Shown here in pieces: positions 3,360 to 15,867 of a DNA stretch of 15,867 nucleotides (within the stretch, counting starts at the first letter, position 1; each line of letters starts with the position of its first letter). The DNA is from Candidatus Krumholzibacteriia bacterium (lineage in GTDB: Bacteria; Krumholzibacteriota; Krumholzibacteriia; WVZY01). The translations under genes were made by a program, and so were the position numbers. Location of the stretch: NCBI GenBank assembly GCA_036478295.1, contig JAZGDW010000192.1, positions 1-15,867 of the forward strand, written 5' to 3'. The notes under the pieces are model-generated. The model searched no databases. It was not told where the DNA came from and worked only from the letters and a program-made list of their open reading frames with translations.

Positions 3360-4444
3360 AGGCGGACCTCGTACGCGTGGTGACCGAAGAGCTAGGTCAA
3401 GGGGGCAGGATCCTCGTCAGCCGGCTGCAGTATCTCGGGGACGTCATCCTGTCGCTGCCGCTCGTGCAGGCGCTTCGGCGGCGGTTCCCCAACGCGGAAA
3501 TCGATTACTTGACCCGCGAGCAGGGAGCCGGAGCTCTGGCCGGGGAAGCAGCGTTTGGACGCGTATTTCGCCTGCCCGAAAAACACGAGGGAACGGTCGC
3601 GATGATTCGCCTGGTCCGCGAACTTCGCCGGCGACGATACAGCGCGTCGATCGATCTCTACTCCAATCCCCGCAGCGCGTTGCTCACCTGGCTCTCCGGT
3701 GCGAAGCTGCGAATCGGCGGCGCGCGGCGCGTCCGCCGCCACCTGTACACGCACGCGGTGCGGGTGCCGCCCTCTGTCAGGGCCGCCACCGAGCACCATC
3801 TTTACTACGCGAAATGTCTCGGTGTGGAAGGGCCGCCCGTCAAACCCAGTCTGGTTGTTTCGGATGCCGAACGCACGCGGGCACGCGAGACCCTGGCGTC
3901 GCTGGGCGGCGGTCAGGGACTGTCGATAGGGATCCACCCCGGCGGCAAGTGGGAAGTGAAACGCTGGCCCGTCGAGAGTTTTGTGTCACTGGCGGGCCGT
4001 CTCGCGGACCGTGGTGACCGGGTTGTGGTGCTCTGTGGGCCAGGTGAAGAGGGCTACAGGGACGCCGTCCGCGCCGAGCTTGGCGAGCGAGCGGTCTACG
4101 CTCCCGTGCTGCCGGTGCGCGACACCGCGGCGATCATTAGCGAGCTCGCCGGCATGGTGGTTTGCGACGGCGGCATGATGCATGTGTCAGTGGCCGTGGA
4201 CACGCCGACCGTGGGCATTTTCGGAAGCAGCGAGCCGGAGGTGTGGTTTCCATATGAAGATCTCGGACCGTATACGCCGGCATGGACGCCAATAACCTGT
4301 CGGCCCTGCCACCAGCACACTTGTGATCACCTCAGCTGTTTGAACTATTTGACCGTGGACATGGTGAAGCAGAAGCTGGACGCGGTGTTGAACCGTGCGA
4401 CTTCGCCAGGTCCCATAGTGCGGTCACAGGAAACGTCAGCATGA
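3356..4444 (+). CDS. Glycosyltransferase family 9 (heptosyltransferase-like)
   Basis: RILVSRLQYLGDVILSLPLVQALRRRFPNAEIDYL, GIHPGGKWEVKRWP, VCDGGMMHVSVAVDTPTVGIFGSS, CRPC..C..C. GTGA overlap with the upstream gene. Confidence 0.9.
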   Translation: MKADLVRVVTEELGQGGRILVSRLQYLGDVILSLPLVQALRRRFPNAEIDYLTREQGAGALAGEAAFGRVFRLPEKHEGTVAMIRLVRELRRRRYSASIDLYSNPRSALLTWLSGAKLRIGGARRVRRHLYTHAVRVPPSVRAATEHHLYYAKCLGVEGPPVKPSLVVSDAERTRARETLASLGGGQGLSIGIHPGGKWEVKRWPVESFVSLAGRLADRGDRVVVLCGPGEEGYRDAVRAELGERAVYAPVLPVRDTAAIISELAGMVVCDGGMMHVSVAVDTPTVGIFGSSEPEVWFPYEDLGPYTPAWTPITCRPCHQHTCDHLSCLNYLTVDMVKQKLDAVLNRATSPGPIVRSQETSA

Positions 4445-5511
4445 AAAAAACTACCTCGACCATACTGGCCGTGCGCCTCAGACAGTTGGGTGACGTTCTC
4501 GCCACGCTGGGCACGCTGCGTGCCATCAAGCGAGCGGCGCCGGACAAACGGCTCGTTTTTATGGTCGACGCCCATTACCACGATCTGCTCGAGAACGTTC
4601 CCTTCGTCGACTTGCTGCTGCCACAGCCGCCGAAACTCGCCGGCGTGCAAGGGCTGGCGCACTTCACCCACTTTGTGGAGGAACTGCGGGGCCTGGAGGT
4701 CGATTGCGTGCTCGATTTTCATTCGAACACGAGAAGCGCCCTTTTGGCATGGCTGTCCGGTGCACCGGTGCGAATCGGGTTCGACGTGCGCCTGCGCAAA
4801 CTTCTTTACACCGACGTCGAACCGCGGGCTGTTTTTGAAAATGGTCACAAGAAGGCCCGGACGGCGCACGAATCCGCTATGGCGCTTGCTCGCAGGTGCG
4901 GCGTTTCGGACCTGAAAGACGACGGATACAATACGCTCGCCGTGTCTGTGGAAGAACTGGCGACGGGGAAGCGCGCGTTATTGGCGAGCGGCGTGGGCGA
5001 CGAGCACGGCCTGCCGCAAGCGGTCGTGGGCATCAACCCAGGCAATCCCTATCCGGCCAAAGCGTGGCCCGAAGCGTCATTTGTTGAATTAGCACGGAGG
5101 CTCGTGGCGAGCGGCAAGTCGGTCGTGGTGTTGTGGGGACCGGGAGAGCGGCAGCGCGCCGACGCGATTACGGCCGGCGCGGGCAAAGGTGTGACCATCG
5201 CGCCGGCGATGCCCCTCAAAGCAATGCCGGGCTTCGTGAGCCACATGGCGCAGATTGTAACCATCGACTCCGGATTGAAGCACCTCGCCGTGGCGGTAGG
5301 CGTACCGACGGTGACACTCTTCGGCCCGACACATCCCGAAGAGTGGCACATGGGGGGTGAGCGTGACCGTTACCTGTACGAAAACCTCTCTTGCTCCCCC
5401 TGCAGGCTGCTCGTTTGCCCGTTCGGCGACCATCCATGCATGACACGGATCGCTCCCGATACCGTCCTAGACGCCGTCGCGGCAATCGACCAGCAGGCGG
5501 CGATCCAATGA
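4441..5511 (+). CDS. Glycosyltransferase family 9 (heptosyltransferase-like)
   Basis: ILAVRLRQLGDVLAT, GINPGNPYPAKAWP, TIDSGLKHLAVAVGVPTVTLFGPT, CSPCRLLVCP..HPCM. ATGA overlap. Confidence 0.9.
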   Translation: MKKTTSTILAVRLRQLGDVLATLGTLRAIKRAAPDKRLVFMVDAHYHDLLENVPFVDLLLPQPPKLAGVQGLAHFTHFVEELRGLEVDCVLDFHSNTRSALLAWLSGAPVRIGFDVRLRKLLYTDVEPRAVFENGHKKARTAHESAMALARRCGVSDLKDDGYNTLAVSVEELATGKRALLASGVGDEHGLPQAVVGINPGNPYPAKAWPEASFVELARRLVASGKSVVVLWGPGERQRADAITAGAGKGVTIAPAMPLKAMPGFVSHMAQIVTIDSGLKHLAVAVGVPTVTLFGPTHPEEWHMGGERDRYLYENLSCSPCRLLVCPFGDHPCMTRIAPDTVLDAVAAIDQQAAIQ

Positions 5512-10431: not shown

Positions 10432-11976
10432 ATGCGCAAACGGATAACGGAGCTGCTTTGGCAGTACGTGCCGATTGCCGCTGTCCTCGGCCTGGCGTCG
10501 CTCGTTCTCGCCAGCCAGGTCGTGCGGCCGCACCGCCGCATGATCAAGATGTCCGTTATGCTGGTTGCGCTCGTCATCATGCTGCGCTTCGAGATGCTGT
10601 ACAGTCTGTACTTCTTCGTCTTCCTTTTCCCGTTTCCTAGCGGGATTCTCGTCACCAGTACCAACATCCTGCTGATGACTCTCCTCACGTTGCTGTGGAT
10701 GGTGCGCGCGAACGCGACCGGAGTTCGGCTGTTCGCGAGGACCGAGATCGATGGTTTTGTCATCTTGTTCTTGGTCGCCTATCTGCTGTCCTTTTTCAAC
10801 ATAGAACAAAAGTCGGATCTGATAGAGGGAGTCAAGATCGTGTGGCGCCAGGCGACGGCCTTCGCCTTTTTCTATTTGATTGTCACTTTTGTCACCGACG
10901 AGAAGAAACTCGAAGGGATAATTAAGGTAGCGTCCCTGTCGGCGGGCTTTCTGGTTCTGACCGCGCTGATCGAAATGGTGTCACCCGGAATCACCATTAT
11001 CCCCGGCTGGATCATGACGGGGCAAAAGCTGGGACAGGGCGAGCTGGGGTATCGACTGGAGGCGCTACGTGTGGGTGGATCGGTGGCCAGTCATGGGCTG
11101 CTGTCGGACTACTGTACTATCAGCATTTTTTTTATGGTTATGTTGTTCATGCGGGCAAGAAACCCCATCGAGAAACTGATGTGGCTGGCCGTGAGCACCG
11201 GCACCTTCATTGTGCTCCTCGCGACCGCCAACCGCGGCGCTTTTTTCAGCTTCATTTTCGGGGTGATCTACTTTTTGTATGTGTTCCGGCACCGCTTCAA
11301 CCTCGTTCGCTACGTTATCGTTATTTCCGCCATCCTGGCGTTTTTCTCGGTTGCGCAGCTGATGCTCGACAGATACACGTTGGCGGCGTCGATTACACAG
11401 CGCGTGGTCGGCACCGAATTTATAGGGTGGGTTCCAGACAGCCGGGTCGGCGTGTGGGAGGCGCCTCTGCGACGCAGCACCGAGCACCTCTTCTTCGGGC
11501 ATGGTCCCTTTTATGGTGTCGCGCCGGGACTGGAACGGATGCTGTGGCCCCACAACGCGTATATCTATTATTTGTATACCCTGGGGCTCCTGGGACTGAC
11601 GGCATTCATGCTCATCGTCTACCGCGTCGCGAGAACTTCTTTTCGCCACAGGAGCCTTGTGGTCCGAAACACATTCGTCGGCACGGTGATGGGCATCCTG
11701 CACATCCAGCTGGCGATGTTCTTGCTCGAACAGCTGCGCACCGATCACCAGCGCAACACGGACTTCGTGTACATCTATATCGCGTGGATGTTGTTCGGGC
11801 TTATCGTTGCCGCAGGCAAATTGATCCGGGAACGCGAAAAGGCGGCGGCCGTGGCGACGAGCACTACAGATAACCCAGCGCCTTCAACTGGCGAATTATC
11901 TCCGGGTTGGCCAGTGACTCGGCCTGGTGCCCAAGCTCCTGGGCCTTTTCCAGGTAGAGGTCCAGCCTCCTCATGA
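10432..11976 (+). CDS. O-antigen ligase family (WaaL/Wzy_C) polytopic membrane protein
   Basis: About 12 hydrophobic segments, LLATANRGAF (T-x-S/N-R-G), periplasmic loop SRVGVWE...FFGHG, and PHNAYIYYLYTLGLLG (HN-x-Y...G-l-l-G, catalytic His). Start is ATG 10432 or GTG 10417; the ORF-track start of 10378 is less likely. Confidence 0.85.
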   Translation: MRKRITELLWQYVPIAAVLGLASLVLASQVVRPHRRMIKMSVMLVALVIMLRFEMLYSLYFFVFLFPFPSGILVTSTNILLMTLLTLLWMVRANATGVRLFARTEIDGFVILFLVAYLLSFFNIEQKSDLIEGVKIVWRQATAFAFFYLIVTFVTDEKKLEGIIKVASLSAGFLVLTALIEMVSPGITIIPGWIMTGQKLGQGELGYRLEALRVGGSVASHGLLSDYCTISIFFMVMLFMRARNPIEKLMWLAVSTGTFIVLLATANRGAFFSFIFGVIYFLYVFRHRFNLVRYVIVISAILAFFSVAQLMLDRYTLAASITQRVVGTEFIGWVPDSRVGVWEAPLRRSTEHLFFGHGPFYGVAPGLERMLWPHNAYIYYLYTLGLLGLTAFMLIVYRVARTSFRHRSLVVRNTFVGTVMGILHIQLAMFLLEQLRTDHQRNTDFVYIYIAWMLFGLIVAAGKLIREREKAAAVATSTTDNPAPSTGELSPGWPVTRPGAQAPGPFPGRGPASS

Positions 11977-13759
11977 GATCGGCCATGACCTCGGGCTCGC
12001 TAGCGGAGAGATCACGGTACTCCTGCGGGTCTTTGTCGAGGTCGTACAGATAGGCCGTATCCGTCGAGTCGACGTACATGACTTTCCAGTTGCGCTCGAC
12101 GAGCGCGGCGCAGAAATCACCTTCCGAGATCGATGCGAGCTCCAGATCACGGGTCTCGCCGGTGAGCAAGGGTTCAAGACTCTGCCCCATGGCTTCCTGG
12201 GGGACGGGCTGGCCGATGATCCCGGCCAGCGTCGGCAGGATATCGATGTGCCTTACCAAGGACTCGACGCGCCGCCCGCCCTGGTAGCGGGCCGGATCCC
12301 AGACGATGAGCGGCACCCTGATGAGTCCCTCGATCACCAGGTTGGTGTGGTAGAGGCTCCCGTGTTCGAGAAACTCGTCGCCGTGATCCGCGGTGATGAT
12401 GACGATGGTTTCCCGCTCCTGTGAGATCTGCCGCACCCGGTCGAGAATGCGGCCGATCTCATGGTCGGCGTACAGAATAGTCGCGTCGTAGTAATCGCGC
12501 AGGGCTTCGAGCCGTTCTGGATCGAGGTCTTGTGGCCGGCCTGCCTTGAGTAGTTGCAGCGTCTCTATAAACAACTCCGCGGCGTCGGGACCGTCCGTCG
12601 ACGGGCGAATTCGCCGTTCGAACTCCTCGGGCGCGACGTAGGGATGATGCGTGTCCATGTAGTGCATGTAGAGGAAAAAAGGCCGGTCCTGCAGGTGGTC
12701 CAGCCAGGCCAGGCCGCGGTCGGTGAGCGCGGCGGCTCCGGGTGAGCCGGTAGAGGCATATTCCGGCCGTCCCAGCACATTGAGTTTTCGGAGCAGCTTG
12801 TACAGGCCGAGGGCGTAACAACCCGCGTTGAACTCTTCCACGCGATCGAAACCCTGGGTCATCCCGAATGCGGATTTGAGGTAGATGTTGGTCATCAGGC
12901 CGACGGAGGTGTAGTTCGCCCGCTGAAACAACTCCGCGATGGTCACGCGGTCGTCCGGCAACGGGCTCATGAGTTCACCCCGGCTGATGGCTCCGTGAAA
13001 CGACGGGTAGAGTGAGGTAAAGATGGCGGGCATGGCCAGCACCGTCCGGTTGCCATGCGAGCGCGCGTTCAGGAACACAACGCCCTCGGCGGCCACCCGA
13101 TCCATATTGGGAGAGGTCGGGCGTTCATAGCCGTATGCCGACAGGTGGTCGGCGCGCAGGGCGTCCAAAACAATGAAGACCACGTTGGGGCCGGCACTCG
13201 GGTCGGCTGGGGGTTGCGGCAGGCGAAATTCACTTCCGCGCTGGGTGAGGAACAGTACCAGCGCGAGCAATACAGATGCGGCCGTGGGTGGTACGAGGTG
13301 TTTCGTGCGAGGGGGCCGCCCCTTGGGTGCAATAATCCTGCCCGCCGCCATCGCCACGGCGGCGGCGGCCAACAGAAAAGCGACGATGAACAGCATATCA
13401 GGGGACGCCCACAGTCTCCGAATCGCGGACAGGGGGTGGTTGCGCAGGTACCAGAACGACGCCGCCAGAAAGAACCACGCTCCCGCGTAGAACCGGACGA
13501 AGCCGGCGGGCCGCAGCAGTCGCCCGGCGAGCACGCTGGGTGTCGCGACCACCAGGCCGAAGACCGTGCCGGCGGCGATGAAGGACACCAGATAGACGAA
13601 AACCACGCGTGCGAGAGAATCACCGAGCAGGCTGTAGTGGCCGCGATACGGGATCACGGCTTCGGCGACGAGCAGGGTCACGCCTCCCACTACGCCAAAA
13701 CAGCAGGCCGTCAGCAAGTGCCCCGCGAACGCCCTCGGTCGATCATTGCCGGTCCGCAT
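11864..13759 (-). CDS. Membrane-anchored sulfatase-like hydrolase/transferase (alkaline phosphatase superfamily, Thr-type)
   Basis: About 5 N-terminal TM segments, then PNVVFIVLDALRADHLSAYGYERPTSPNMD, RTVLAMPAIFTSLYPSFHG, PFFLYMHYMDTHHPY, IITADHGDEFLEHG, VRHIDILPT, LYDLDKDPQE and C-terminal LKALGYL. SD AAGGAG (13767-13772, minus strand) lies 7 nt before ATG 13759. Confidence 0.9.
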   Translation of the reverse strand: MRTGNDRPRAFAGHLLTACCFGVVGGVTLLVAEAVIPYRGHYSLLGDSLARVVFVYLVSFIAAGTVFGLVVATPSVLAGRLLRPAGFVRFYAGAWFFLAASFWYLRNHPLSAIRRLWASPDMLFIVAFLLAAAAVAMAAGRIIAPKGRPPRTKHLVPPTAASVLLALVLFLTQRGSEFRLPQPPADPSAGPNVVFIVLDALRADHLSAYGYERPTSPNMDRVAAEGVVFLNARSHGNRTVLAMPAIFTSLYPSFHGAISRGELMSPLPDDRVTIAELFQRANYTSVGLMTNIYLKSAFGMTQGFDRVEEFNAGCYALGLYKLLRKLNVLGRPEYASTGSPGAAALTDRGLAWLDHLQDRPFFLYMHYMDTHHPYVAPEEFERRIRPSTDGPDAAELFIETLQLLKAGRPQDLDPERLEALRDYYDATILYADHEIGRILDRVRQISQERETIVIITADHGDEFLEHGSLYHTNLVIEGLIRVPLIVWDPARYQGGRRVESLVRHIDILPTLAGIIGQPVPQEAMGQSLEPLLTGETRDLELASISEGDFCAALVERNWKVMYVDSTDTAYLYDLDKDPQEYRDLSASEPEVMADLMRRLDLYLEKAQELGHQAESLANPEIIRQLKALGYL

Positions 13760-13970
13760 CACGAGGCTCCTTTCCAGGCGATACAGTAGCGGGCCGGCGA
13801 CCCGGTGGCCGGCGTCCCTCGTGCCTCGTGGGGGGGCGCGTCAGGGCTCACGCGCAGGCCATGGGTCGGCGCCGGTGGGTGAGGCAAGAAGTGTCGAGAT
13901 GCGCGGATCAAGGATACAGAGCTTGTCAACGGAAGTACTGCCAGGCTGTTACGCCAGCCTGCTAGCACTG

Positions 13971-13999
13971 ATAGTAACAGAAATGGCGGGGATATTCGA
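13971..13999 (-). promoter_or_regulatory. Candidate extended -10 sigma70 promoter for the sulfatase-like gene
   Basis: Minus strand TCGAAT (13999-13994)-N17-TACTAT (13976-13971), with TG-n directly before the -10. The -35 is weak (3/6). Confidence 0.45.
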
Positions 14000-14133
14000 G
14001 GCCAAAGTGAGGTGGGTGGTTCCAAACAACCGCGGGTAGGGCACGCGGAGGCGTGGTGGAAGGGCAGCAGCGGTGGCCGCCCCGGGGCCACGTGTGTGGG
14101 CGGCCGGCAGGCGATTCGGGCGCCATGTACACC

Positions 14134-14162
14134 TTGACATCAGGATGGGGAGATGGTACTAT
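14134..14162 (+). promoter_or_regulatory. Near-consensus sigma70 promoter for the polysaccharide locus
   Basis: TTGACA (14134-14139)-N17-TACTAT (14157-14162) with extended TG at 14154-14155, followed by an AT-rich stretch. Confidence 0.8.
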
Positions 14163-14168
14163 TATCAA

Positions 14169-14335
14169 ACAAATCAGGAGGTTACCCCGAGTTACTGTTA
14201 AAGCATCTTATACTTGATTTACAGCTTAGGTTTTCAATTGTGGAGCGCTGGTAGCGCGCCAGTATAAGTTTCTTTGGCAGGAGGTTCGGGTTGAGCGATG
14301 TGCCGTATTCCCTTGGATCAGGGTGCGGTTTTTTT
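14169..14335 (+). ncRNA. Putative structured leader/attenuator RNA (or sRNA) between promoter and terminator
   Basis: Hand pairing gives 14186-14193/14283-14290, 14195-14203/14272-14280 and 14207-14214/14261-14268 (25 bp, 5 G-U), an apical GCGCT-GGT-AGCGC hairpin (14245-14257), and then a terminator. The 5' end is inferred from the promoter. Confidence 0.5.
14302..14335 (+). terminator. Intrinsic terminator within the 5' leader of the sugar transferase gene
   Basis: GCCGTA-tt-CCCT-tggatc-AGGG-TGCGGT stem-loop followed by a T7 run (14329-14335), about 57 nt before the start codon. Confidence 0.6.
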
Positions 14336-14392
14336 GTGTCCAGGAGTGGGATTGATACGTCTTTTGTCAGGATAGCAGAGTAGGAGTCTTGT

Positions 14393-15091
14393 GTGGGCGT
14401 GAAGGAAGAAGTAACAACAAGGGCCGGGCGGGTTTTGGACGCCGGTGTGAACACTGCGGCGCCGGTGCCGATCGAGATCCGGCAGTCGTCGATGTATGAC
14501 CTGGGCAAGCGGATTTTTGACCTGGCCGCGGGGTCGCTGATTCTGCTGCTGCTGTTGCCGATCATTCCGTTGATCGCCATCATGATCAAGCTGGACAGCC
14601 CGGGACCGGTATTCTTCAAACAGGAGCGTGTCGGCAAGAACGGCCGGGTTTTCAAGTTTTTCAAGTTTCGCTCGATGTACCGGGAGGCGGAACGACGACG
14701 CAGGGAAGTGGAGAGTCTCAATGAGCAAGAGGGGCCTGTTTTCAAGGCTCGCTTGGATCCCCGGGTGACGGTTGTGGGAGGTTTCCTGCGACGGTCCAGT
14801 CTCGACGAGATCCCCCAGATTTTCAACGTGTTGCGGGGTGAGATGAGCATCGTTGGTCCGCGGCCGCACCTGCCGGCCGAGGTGAAGAAATACCAACCGT
14901 GGCACCGCAAGCGGCTCGAGGTGACGCCGGGTATCACCTGTTTGTGGCAGATATCCGGTCGTAGCCACATCAGTTTTAACGAATGGATGCGTCTCGACGT
15001 GGAGTATTTACGGCTCCGTAGTTTCAAGACTGACCTCGCGATTTTCCTCAAAACCATCCCCGCGGTGATTGCCAGGAAAGGTGCGTACTAG
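14393..15091 (+). CDS. Undecaprenyl-phosphate glycosyl-1-phosphate transferase (Bac_transf; small WcaJ/WbaP/PglC-type initiating transferase)
   Basis: KRIFDL plus hydrophobic helix, DSPGPVFFKQERVGKNGRVFKFFKFRSM, DPRVT, SLDEIPQIFNVLRGEMSIVGPRP (DE dyad), PGITCLWQISGRS. SD AGGAG at 14382-14386 before GTG 14393. Confidence 0.93.
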   Translation: MGVKEEVTTRAGRVLDAGVNTAAPVPIEIRQSSMYDLGKRIFDLAAGSLILLLLLPIIPLIAIMIKLDSPGPVFFKQERVGKNGRVFKFFKFRSMYREAERRRREVESLNEQEGPVFKARLDPRVTVVGGFLRRSSLDEIPQIFNVLRGEMSIVGPRPHLPAEVKKYQPWHRKRLEVTPGITCLWQISGRSHISFNEWMRLDVEYLRLRSFKTDLAIFLKTIPAVIARKGAY

Positions 15092-15109: not shown

Positions 15110-15131
15110 ATCCCGTGGTCTTCAGGAGTGT

Positions 15132-15159
15132 TTGACAAGCGATTTTTTGGTGGCATGAT
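15132..15159 (+). promoter_or_regulatory. Candidate sigma70 promoter upstream of the wza-like gene
   Basis: TTGACA (15132-15137)-N16-CATGAT (15154-15159) with TG-n extension, 52 nt before the ATG. Confidence 0.55.
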
Positions 15160-15211
15160 AAGGGCGGGGGAGGCGTACGGCTACCGCCCGTGCATCGTTC
15201 ACAGGAGCGGA

Positions 15212-15867
15212 ATGTTGAAAAAAAGAGTTTTCGGAACCTTGATGTTGCGGGTCGTGATCGCGCCGGCGCTCGTTGTCGGCCTTTCGGCTTGCTCTTCCAA
15301 CCGCAGGCCTGTCGGTGCCGGGGGCGGCGTCTACCCGCCGCAACAGCTCGGGCAGTTCCTGCGGGATACGTCGCCGCCAAGGCAGAGCAACGACTACATC
15401 ATCGCTGTCGGTGACCGCCTGGACGTCGTCTTCTTTTTCGATCGCGACCTGAGTCAGAAAGAGCTGCTGGTCAGAAGCGACGGGCGCATCACCCTGCCCT
15501 ACACGGGCGATGTCATGGCCGCGGGCCGCACGCCGATGCAGCTCGACACGTTGCTGACCCGTCGCTTTGCAGAGATCCTCAAGGAGCCGAATCTTTCGGT
15601 CATCGTGGTAAAGACCACCGACCCTGTGGTGTACGTCCTGGGCGAGGTCCGCGATCCGGGCGGATATCCGTTTAAGCGGGCGGTTTCACTGGTGCAAGCG
15701 CTGGCTCTGGCGGGCGGGCTGAGGGACGGTGCCAAGTCGAACCACGTACTGGTCATTCGCCGCAAGGGACTACAGGGGATCGTCGGCGTGGAGGTGAATG
15801 CCAAGGCCATAATCCAGGGCGAGCAGGTACAGAACGATTTTCTGCTGCGGGATTTCGACATCGTGTA
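15212..15867 (+). CDS. wza: Polysaccharide export outer-membrane lipoprotein (Wza/OPX family), 3'-truncated
   Basis: Translated by hand; absent from the ORF track because there is no stop in the window. MLKKRVFGTLMLRVVIAPALVVGLSAC (lipobox, Cys27), DYIIAVGDRLDVVFF..LLVRSDGRITLPYTGDVMAAGRTPMQL (Poly_export), VYVLGEVRDPGGY..SLVQALALAGGL (SLBB). SD AGGAG at 15203-15207. Confidence 0.92.
   Translation, partial: MLKKRVFGTLMLRVVIAPALVVGLSACSSNRRPVGAGGGVYPPQQLGQFLRDTSPPRQSNDYIIAVGDRLDVVFFFDRDLSQKELLVRSDGRITLPYTGDVMAAGRTPMQLDTLLTRRFAEILKEPNLSVIVVKTTDPVVYVLGEVRDPGGYPFKRAVSLVQALALAGGLRDGAKSNHVLVIRRKGLQGIVGVEVNAKAIIQGEQVQNDFLLRDFDIV

Follow-up and report, generated by a model that had tools for sequence, protein, structure and literature searches.

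A conserved structured leader RNA ahead of a polysaccharide operon in Candidatus Krumholzibacteriia

The locus and the architecture of the leader

The DNA under study is a window of 15,867 nt (the whole stretch that was analysed) from contig JAZGDW010000192.1 of assembly GCA_036478295.1, Candidatus Krumholzibacteriia bacterium; the leader occupies 14134-14392. Two genes follow it on the + strand: a polyprenyl glycosylphosphotransferase (Bac_transf, 14393-15091; PF02397, E 2e-65; TIGR03025 slightly below cut-off) and a Wza-type polysaccharide export protein (15128-15867; PF02563 and SLBB), which is truncated by the contig end. The first gene has an ordinary Shine-Dalgarno (SD) sequence, AGGAG at 14382-14386, with its GTG at 14393 lying 6 nt downstream. 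In the relative G011, a single contig, the run of polysaccharide genes extends ~17 kb further and encodes a chain-length protein, an XrtA-type ATPase, a tyrosine kinase, glycosyltransferases and a second Bac_transf protein, most of them below NCBIfam cut-offs. The closest named orthologues are 66-81% identical and labelled mostly Ca. Krumholzibacteriia or Latescibacterota. A membrane-anchored sulfatase gene (11864-13762, - strand) is divergent to the leader promoter in the window and co-directional upstream in G011; the polysaccharide block has thus been rearranged. The leader itself is single-copy and not a dispersed repeat (blastn and nhmmer against this genome). Its sequence is corroborated by a contig from another public DNA run that covers 13900-14349, none of whose nine differences falls within 14160-14299.

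The initial annotation described a near-perfect promoter, and this is what we found: a sigma70-type -35 hexamer TTGACA (14134-14139, + strand), a 17-nt spacer and an extended -10 element TG-G-TACTAT (14154-14162), 10/12 matches in all. It is the sole promoter-like site in 13400-14700 (shuffle mean 0.4). A TTGAC-type -35 hexamer is present in 27/30 orthologous loci and the extended -10 element is conserved in relatives. Transcription would start near 14169.

Close to the predicted 5′ end lies an SD-like AGGAGGU (14176-14182), whose GGAGG is found in 27/30 orthologous loci. It is followed by the 5′ strands of three nested helices, P1 (CCCGAG, 14186-14191, partner 14285-14290; MFE and arm covariation), P2 (14195-14203, partner 14272-14280) and P3 (CTTATACT, 14207-14214, partner 14261-14268; MFE and same-genus comparison). 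The P2 strand doubles as a box, YUGYUAnnG (CTGTTAAAG), that stands out by its conservation. The apex (14215-14260) is variable and unconserved in sequence and includes, in the MFE structure, a GCGCT-GGT-AGCGC hairpin (14245-14257). The 3′ arm (14261-14290) holds the partners of P3, P2 and P1 and varies between relatives so as to keep the pairing with the 5′ arm; we refer to the paired arms as the rod. Downstream, the MFE structure has an intrinsic-terminator-like hairpin (14302-14329) with a T7 tract (14329-14335). Most of this had been proposed from the sequence, and it holds: direct counting gives 25 pairs in the three helices, five of them G-U, and both the cap hairpin and a separate terminator stem before T7 are present in the MFE structure. 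The latter forms 23 of the 25 pairs and leaves open the two U-G pairs on the inner side of the first helix. A simple terminator scan detected just the inner 5-bp portion of the terminator stem.

Three smaller features were noted. Behind the terminator, a TTGA(C/T)A hexamer (14346-14372) is kept in the same-genus relative; it has no proper -10 element at 17 nt and is possibly a weak second promoter. Both rod arms contain the direct repeat CAGGAGGTT (14175-14183 and 14278-14286), of which the 3′ copy is retained in several family-f1 genera. Across the order, the terminator base ACCG(C/U)A...UGCGGU (14302-14329) shows exceptional conservation. It looks like the stem of helix 45 in 16S rRNA, on which RsmA acts, as judged from relatives' 16S ends; the likeness may be due to chance, because family f5 has CCCGGG instead.

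Conservation, covariation and the platforms of the rod

A plain DNA search found the leader in only 1/40 relatives, and relatives were therefore collected through gene orthology. Thirty loci were selected on protein orthology. The promoter, GGAGG, 13-16 nt and (Y/A)TG(Y/G)TA occur in 27 of them; the other three comprise two cut contigs and one gene directly after its neighbour. A pattern scan matched 86/208 genomes of the phylum, mostly with one match each (reversed control, 23/208), and the matches concentrate in certain families (f1 9/12, f2 19/23, f5 37/43, f6 10/12, f3 5/91). Among the loci viewed, those of f3 and most of those of f7 have the gene within a larger operon and no leader. A Bac_transf gene lies downstream in 26/30 fetched pattern loci, which bears out the proposed tie to polysaccharide operons. 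Unselected orthologues widen the SD-box spacer to 12-20 nt and add the variant TCGCTA. Counts given below out of 66 refer to a leader set of which 38 members were picked via the motif pattern itself and in which relatives are non-independent.

Against shuffled sequence, the fold of the window's copy is weak (-51.2 kcal/mol, z -1.68, 13/200 shuffles as good), and that of its relatives strong: 21 homologous leaders of the order have a mean z of -3.04, 17 of them below -2. The relatives decide the question in favour of the described fold. RNAalifold on a plain MAFFT alignment of the 21 leaders recovered the terminator alone; indels break the alignment register, so we used arm-swap permutations instead. 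Cognate 5′ and 3′ arms pair better than swapped ones by 8.6 kcal/mol in family f1, 9.3 kcal/mol with one genome per genus and 8.1 kcal/mol across the order, with 0/20,000 permutations as good in each set. In family f5 the margin is 2.4 kcal/mol (24/20,000 permutations as good); an f5 alignment is 93% paired, and of its 20 pairs 4 have changes in both partners and 10 in one. The window's own arms rank 4th of 21. In 41/41 leaders the fold of the + strand is better than that of the - strand, as is partly expected from G/U skew. Together with the recurrence at orthologous loci, the co-varying arms uphold the initial view of a structured RNA. The cap hairpin keeps its fold but not its sequence in the same-genus relative, and the apex sequence is free. 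A covariance model built from 15 f5 leaders matches 37/82 sources on the modelled strand (f5, f8 and f9) and did not detect the leaders of the window's order or of KSB1; membership across groups consequently rests on motif, architecture and gene context.

The leader had not been assigned to any known family, and our searches agree. Rfam 15 (T-box, SRP, 6S, riboswitches, JUMPstart and EAR among its models) gave 0 matches at or above the gathering threshold in the window, and its E-value mode gave two chance matches only (E above 2), both outside the leader. A literature search, mainly of freely readable papers and including the accessible text of PMC5737381, found no description of this leader family in the text it covered. 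The leader is real, conserved and, in that literature, undescribed, and is very probably a cis-regulatory element of attenuation type.

What stays constant among the leaders is the 5′ arm, an SD-like GGAGG(U), 12-20 nt and the YUGYUA box, while its 3′ partner varies. Conservation is one-sided: the conserved bases lie on one strand, there is no conserved junction or pocket, and the box sequence is kept regardless of its pairing state in the MFE structure. The GGAGG has SD-like flanks (preceding A in 32/66, following T in 51/66) and is complementary to the 16S 3′ end as read in relatives. It is not followed by a start codon at a usable distance. ATG, GTG or TTG occurs 3-12 nt after the leader SD in 0/66 leaders against 23.0 expected; in this genome SDs most often lie 4-9 nt before an ATG, and unselected metagenome hits with promoter and GGAGG have a normal start codon in 102/118 cases among the matches listed. 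Nor are in-frame AUH codons enriched in the polysaccharide leaders (8/66 versus 10.8 expected). An upstream open reading frame (uORF) starting at the box YUG was rejected; that frame is unconserved (2-104 codons). Purging of start codons means that ribosomes see the site; it does not imply that the ribosome is the trigger.

We give almost no credence to the idea that an alternative sigma factor uses the motif as a second promoter, with GGAGGT as -35 and TGCTA as -10, producing a shorter transcript without the 5′ arm. Most spacers do put 16-19 nt between the two hexamers, and the genomes carry 14-21 sigma70-family matches. However, with unselected orthologues included the spacer ranges over 12-20 nt, against 17-18 nt for the true promoter, and on this spacing both an alternative-sigma and a sigma54 promoter were rejected. 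A genome-wide weight-matrix scan also gave no convincing further sites.

The rod leads into one of two platforms. A terminator was called in at least 41/66 leaders (after removal of one false call; some terminators that can be seen escaped the script). In 16 leaders that lack a terminator, opening the start region is predicted to cost 16.1 kcal/mol with the 5′ arm free and 10.5 kcal/mol with it covered (a drop in 14/16); in terminator-type leaders the two values are 11.0 and 10.4 kcal/mol. The two platforms would thus share one logic, the rod being followed by a terminator or covering a start codon.

These platforms bear on two further explanations. The initial annotation left the choice between a cis element and a stand-alone sRNA of ~165 nt. 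The latter, acting for instance as a decoy for ribosomes or a protein while read-through or a second promoter serves the operon, would account for the leader's own promoter and terminator and for the hexamer behind the terminator here and in the same-genus relative. Yet in the 16 terminator-less relatives the rod extends into the first gene, over its start codon, which favours action in cis, and the motif always stands upstream of a same-direction operon. The genome's 6S and SRP RNAs both lie elsewhere, so that the leader is not a missing copy of either. We regard the cis-acting alternative as very probably right and the stand-alone sRNA as very unlikely. A metabolite riboswitch responding to a nucleotide sugar or second messenger seems highly improbable: one upstream element that serves both terminator and start-sequestering platforms is riboswitch-like, but the conserved bases are confined to one strand and outline neither a junction nor a pocket, rsmA leaders have the motif although they are unstructured (see below), and Rfam gives no match.

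Whether the 5′ arm could control the terminator was addressed by prediction, with mixed results. A first antiterminator test was null (0.63 versus 0.62 in the control, p 0.73), revealing nothing beyond composition. A duplex test between the rod interior and the 5′ strand of the terminator gave a mean z of -1.67 (34/41 negative), and of -1.54 in the comparison with controls, which gave -0.18 and -0.06; values below -2 were reached by 14/41 leaders versus 3 and 0 of 41. Genus g51 has 9-bp co-varying helices between these segments. The window's own leader has no predicted antiterminator (z +1.48). Its terminator persists in the fold when the 5′ arm is covered, and in equilibrium folding the terminator opens in only 5-12/41 leaders; these results and the null first test count against the switch proposed below.

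The same motif ahead of other operons

The conserved core (GGAGG 14177-14181, box 14195-14203) and its recurrence at other operons were overlooked in the initial annotation. In this genome (G000) a copy lies ahead of rsmA/ksgA on contig C198 (- strand, ~4430-4710; locus L451, GGAGG from 4650 downwards). The rsmA motif is present in 20/20 genomes of the order and at 21/50 rsmA loci overall. These leaders have neither rod nor terminator (z near 0). The inferred rsmA start is TTG in 16/21 leaders and has no nearby SD in 18/21; from rsmA onward a co-directional run continues with pdxJ, secD and secF. Other intergenic matches resembling SD plus box in G000 (C310, - strand, oriented 8766; C30, + 18478; C260, - strand, oriented 11234) have no clear -35 and may be due to chance.

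The motif was also found in KSB1, here the phylum of one KSB1-labelled record, in leaders reached via gene orthologues; the strict pattern applied across KSB1 matched 39/151, which is control level. At loci for a choice-of-anchor X lipoprotein (L401-L430, some after pdxJ), 12/30 have SD, box, rod (mean z -2.4) and terminator. Loci L419 and L425 have a promoter and a very short terminator hairpin only, the motif being absent. At the PorV loci (L488-L517) the motif is present in 26/30. The KSB1 SD shifts along the anti-SD (AAGGAG, GAGGAG, GGAGG, GGUGAG), which counts for reading by the ribosome. As in the polysaccharide leaders, canonical starts at 3-12 nt are missing from the PorV leaders (0/26 versus 12.5 expected); here, in-frame AUH is found 4-11 nt past the SD in 16/26 against 4.7 expected, and in 20/26 the box forms a stop codon, mostly as GUU CGY UAA. 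On this sequence evidence the PorV leaders are candidate near-cognate-start attenuators. They also have a rod and a CCGAA...UUCGG terminator, and ~12/26 have an in-frame NTG just 0-2 nt after the SD. A match in a Chlorobaculum-labelled genome was rejected, its family standing at control level (9/61 genomes). From shared motif and layout, we infer a common ancestry of the polysaccharide, rsmA and KSB1 leader sets.

A proposed switch and its relation to known systems

Comparison of the relatives shows a sigma70-type promoter, a 5′ arm with SD and YUGYUA box, and, ~100 nt further on, a 3′ arm able to zip with it into the rod. The rod is followed by an intrinsic terminator in this lineage; in others it encloses the start region of the first gene. 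The folded leader probably keeps the long cell-surface polysaccharide operon OFF. Beyond this layout, we infer the default-OFF logic, the trigger and any signal. Our preferred reading, a tentative one with slightly less than even confidence, is a default-OFF cis switch for a long Wzy-type polysaccharide operon that is opened by occupancy of the 5′ arm, with the 30S subunit as the likeliest occupant. The 5′ arm would serve as a landing site until the rod closes; with the arm occupied no rod would form, and the terminator would be bypassed or the start codon freed. The occupant, of which we are less sure, may be a 30S subunit that pairs through its anti-SD, here without a canonical start and in the KSB1 PorV version with a near-cognate AUH start. 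Output would then follow the supply of free 30S subunits or the stringency of initiation. As for the box, it may provide a further contact or act as a pause signal that lengthens the time available.

The two-platform logic counts for the 30S model, as do the constant 5′ arm with its varying partner, the purged canonical starts, the pairing of rod interior and terminator, the AUH and stop pattern of the PorV leaders and the presence of the same motif before the SD-poor rsmA start (20/20 genomes of the order). Against it, a 30S subunit without initiator tRNA might be unable to keep a rod of about -40 kcal/mol open, the polysaccharide leaders show neither an AUH excess nor a conserved YUG frame, and the model does not account for the box itself.

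The box is central to a different proposal, which we consider unlikely, if still to be reckoned with: RNA polymerase (RNAP) reads it as DNA. Retained sigma70, or housekeeping NusG in the manner of ops, would pause the polymerase ~20 nt downstream, and the paused complex would be modified for processive antitermination or would hand the SD to the 30S subunit, the rod being secondary. The sigma70 version is suggested by TG-n-TA, which corresponds to the upstream part of an extended -10 element. The box fits TGnTA with a free middle base, as the real promoter does, always lies within ~30-75 nt of a -10 element and persists in rsmA leaders, where rod and terminator are missing (z near 0). Its G, T and A could moreover be lined up with G4-A7 of the ops loop, including the flipped T6 (PMC5995543, accessible text). 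However, the sigma-bound -7 T is missing (T in 12/66), although pauses rely on the determinants that promoters use (PMC5995543, accessible text), the logos contain no downstream G+1 pause signature, and the second base of the box is C in family f4 and many KSB1 leaders. The genomes searched also offer no NusG paralogue. PF02357 has exactly one match in each of 32/41 genomes, never two, and none in nine, this genome included; the UpxY model NF033644 was over its cut-off in 0/5 genomes. The initial suggestion of relief by a NusG paralogue accordingly found no support among these genomes. The nusG gene itself has no match in this 91%-complete assembly, most likely because of an assembly gap; tRNA-Sec and tmRNA were found.

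It is distinctly unlikely, in our estimate, that an RNA-binding protein or small RNA binds GGAGG and box and opens the rod, by an anti-antisense or a CsrA- or BglG-like logic. The Y positions of the box are the tolerance expected of an invariant partner G, the 12-20 nt spacer suits recognition at the RNA level, and some f5 leaders hold GGA in a small hairpin loop. But CsrA was over cut-off in 1/5 genomes, not this one, and the BglG/LicT-type CAT domain (CAT_RBD) in 0/5. No shared complementary RNA was evident among 23 pattern rows from five genomes, inspected by eye with one pattern, and the SD variants track the anti-SD rather than a fixed GGA. We also compared the box with the Nus boxA. The rrn leaders of five genomes (L483-L487) carry a canonical boxA, GYTCTTTGA(A/C)AA, and this identity was rejected because the lineage's own boxA is canonical and different from the leader box. 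The same rrn leaders have a conserved ATAGYGT element after boxA.

Returning to 30S occupancy, a wider claim can be phrased, which we think doubtful: a grammar common to at least two uncultured phyla, a promoter-proximal SD free of canonical starts plus a YGnUA box, would catch the 30S subunit on nascent RNA and so license long envelope operons. If true, it would cover polysaccharide, PorV, lipoprotein and rsmA-pdxJ-secDF operons, do the job of RfaH and UpxY with no protein devoted to it, and couple both envelope output and rsmA to the supply of ribosomes or the fidelity of initiation. Were the ribosome the trigger, the leaders would be a natural test of a start-less SD as a sensor via transcription-translation coupling, and ribosome maturation, through rsmA, would be linked to envelope genes. 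The leaders make up a cis-regulatory RNA family, hitherto undescribed, whose small candidate regulon spans two poorly known phyla. They show a possible gating of long polysaccharide operons where RfaH, UpxY and LoaP were not found, and the element is short and testable with ordinary reporters.

Several known systems invite comparison. RfaH-type leaders have the conserved ops sequence GGCGGTAGnnTG. BglG/LicT RAT, CsrA sites and rrn boxA are known motif types, to which the leader bears a superficial likeness only (GUUACUG...CAGG in this copy, GGA and UGCU, respectively); it is not conserved, and the binding proteins were mostly not found. RfaH/ops (JUMPstart) and UpxY/opsX resemble the leader in placing a signal ahead of long polysaccharide operons and in premature termination within the leader, as far as the accessible parts of PMC7819879 and PMC11685472 describe. 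They share SD-poor downstream starts with the leader (here that of rsmA) and, loosely, a G-n-T-A likeness to the ops loop (PMC5995543, accessible text). In contrast to them, the genomes searched here have no NusG paralogue, the SD lies within the signal, and the ops-like GGTAG in the window's cap is unconserved, being replaced in the same-genus relative as part of an unconserved apex.

Ribosome-mediated attenuators with tiny uORFs include Listeria lmo0919 and trp-type leaders. In this class an SD-bearing 5′ segment doubles as anti-activator arm; B. subtilis vmlR is an example (PMC9226507). A downstream terminator or sequestered start is likewise present, and occupancy of the 5′ segment would switch expression on. 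Of the features that mark such attenuators, the leader has the SD; a uORF with a normally spaced start and conserved regulatory codons was not found. It differs further in having no canonical start at usable spacing, no conserved peptide and an extra conserved box, and its targets are envelope genes or rsmA in place of amino-acid or resistance genes.

The Bacillus EAR RNA is a structured RNA tied to exopolysaccharide operons, and infC (IF3) is autoregulated through its AUU start, as E. coli ksgA is at the level of translation. EAR and LoaP leaders are alike in being structured RNAs at exopolysaccharide or long biosynthetic operons (for LoaP, the accessible text of PMC7819879); the present leader, unlike them, has no Rfam match, is directly promoter-proximal and comes without a LoaP-like second NusG. 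The infC and ksgA cases are echoed by the AUH at normal SD spacing in the KSB1 PorV leaders and by the motif ahead of rsmA/ksgA. Unlike in infC, the KSB1 AUH opens a tiny upstream frame and not the gene, and AUH is unenriched in Krumholzibacteria leaders. The leader coincides in full with none of these systems; it would operate in the manner of a ribosome-mediated attenuator and takes the place that RfaH/ops and UpxY/opsX have elsewhere.
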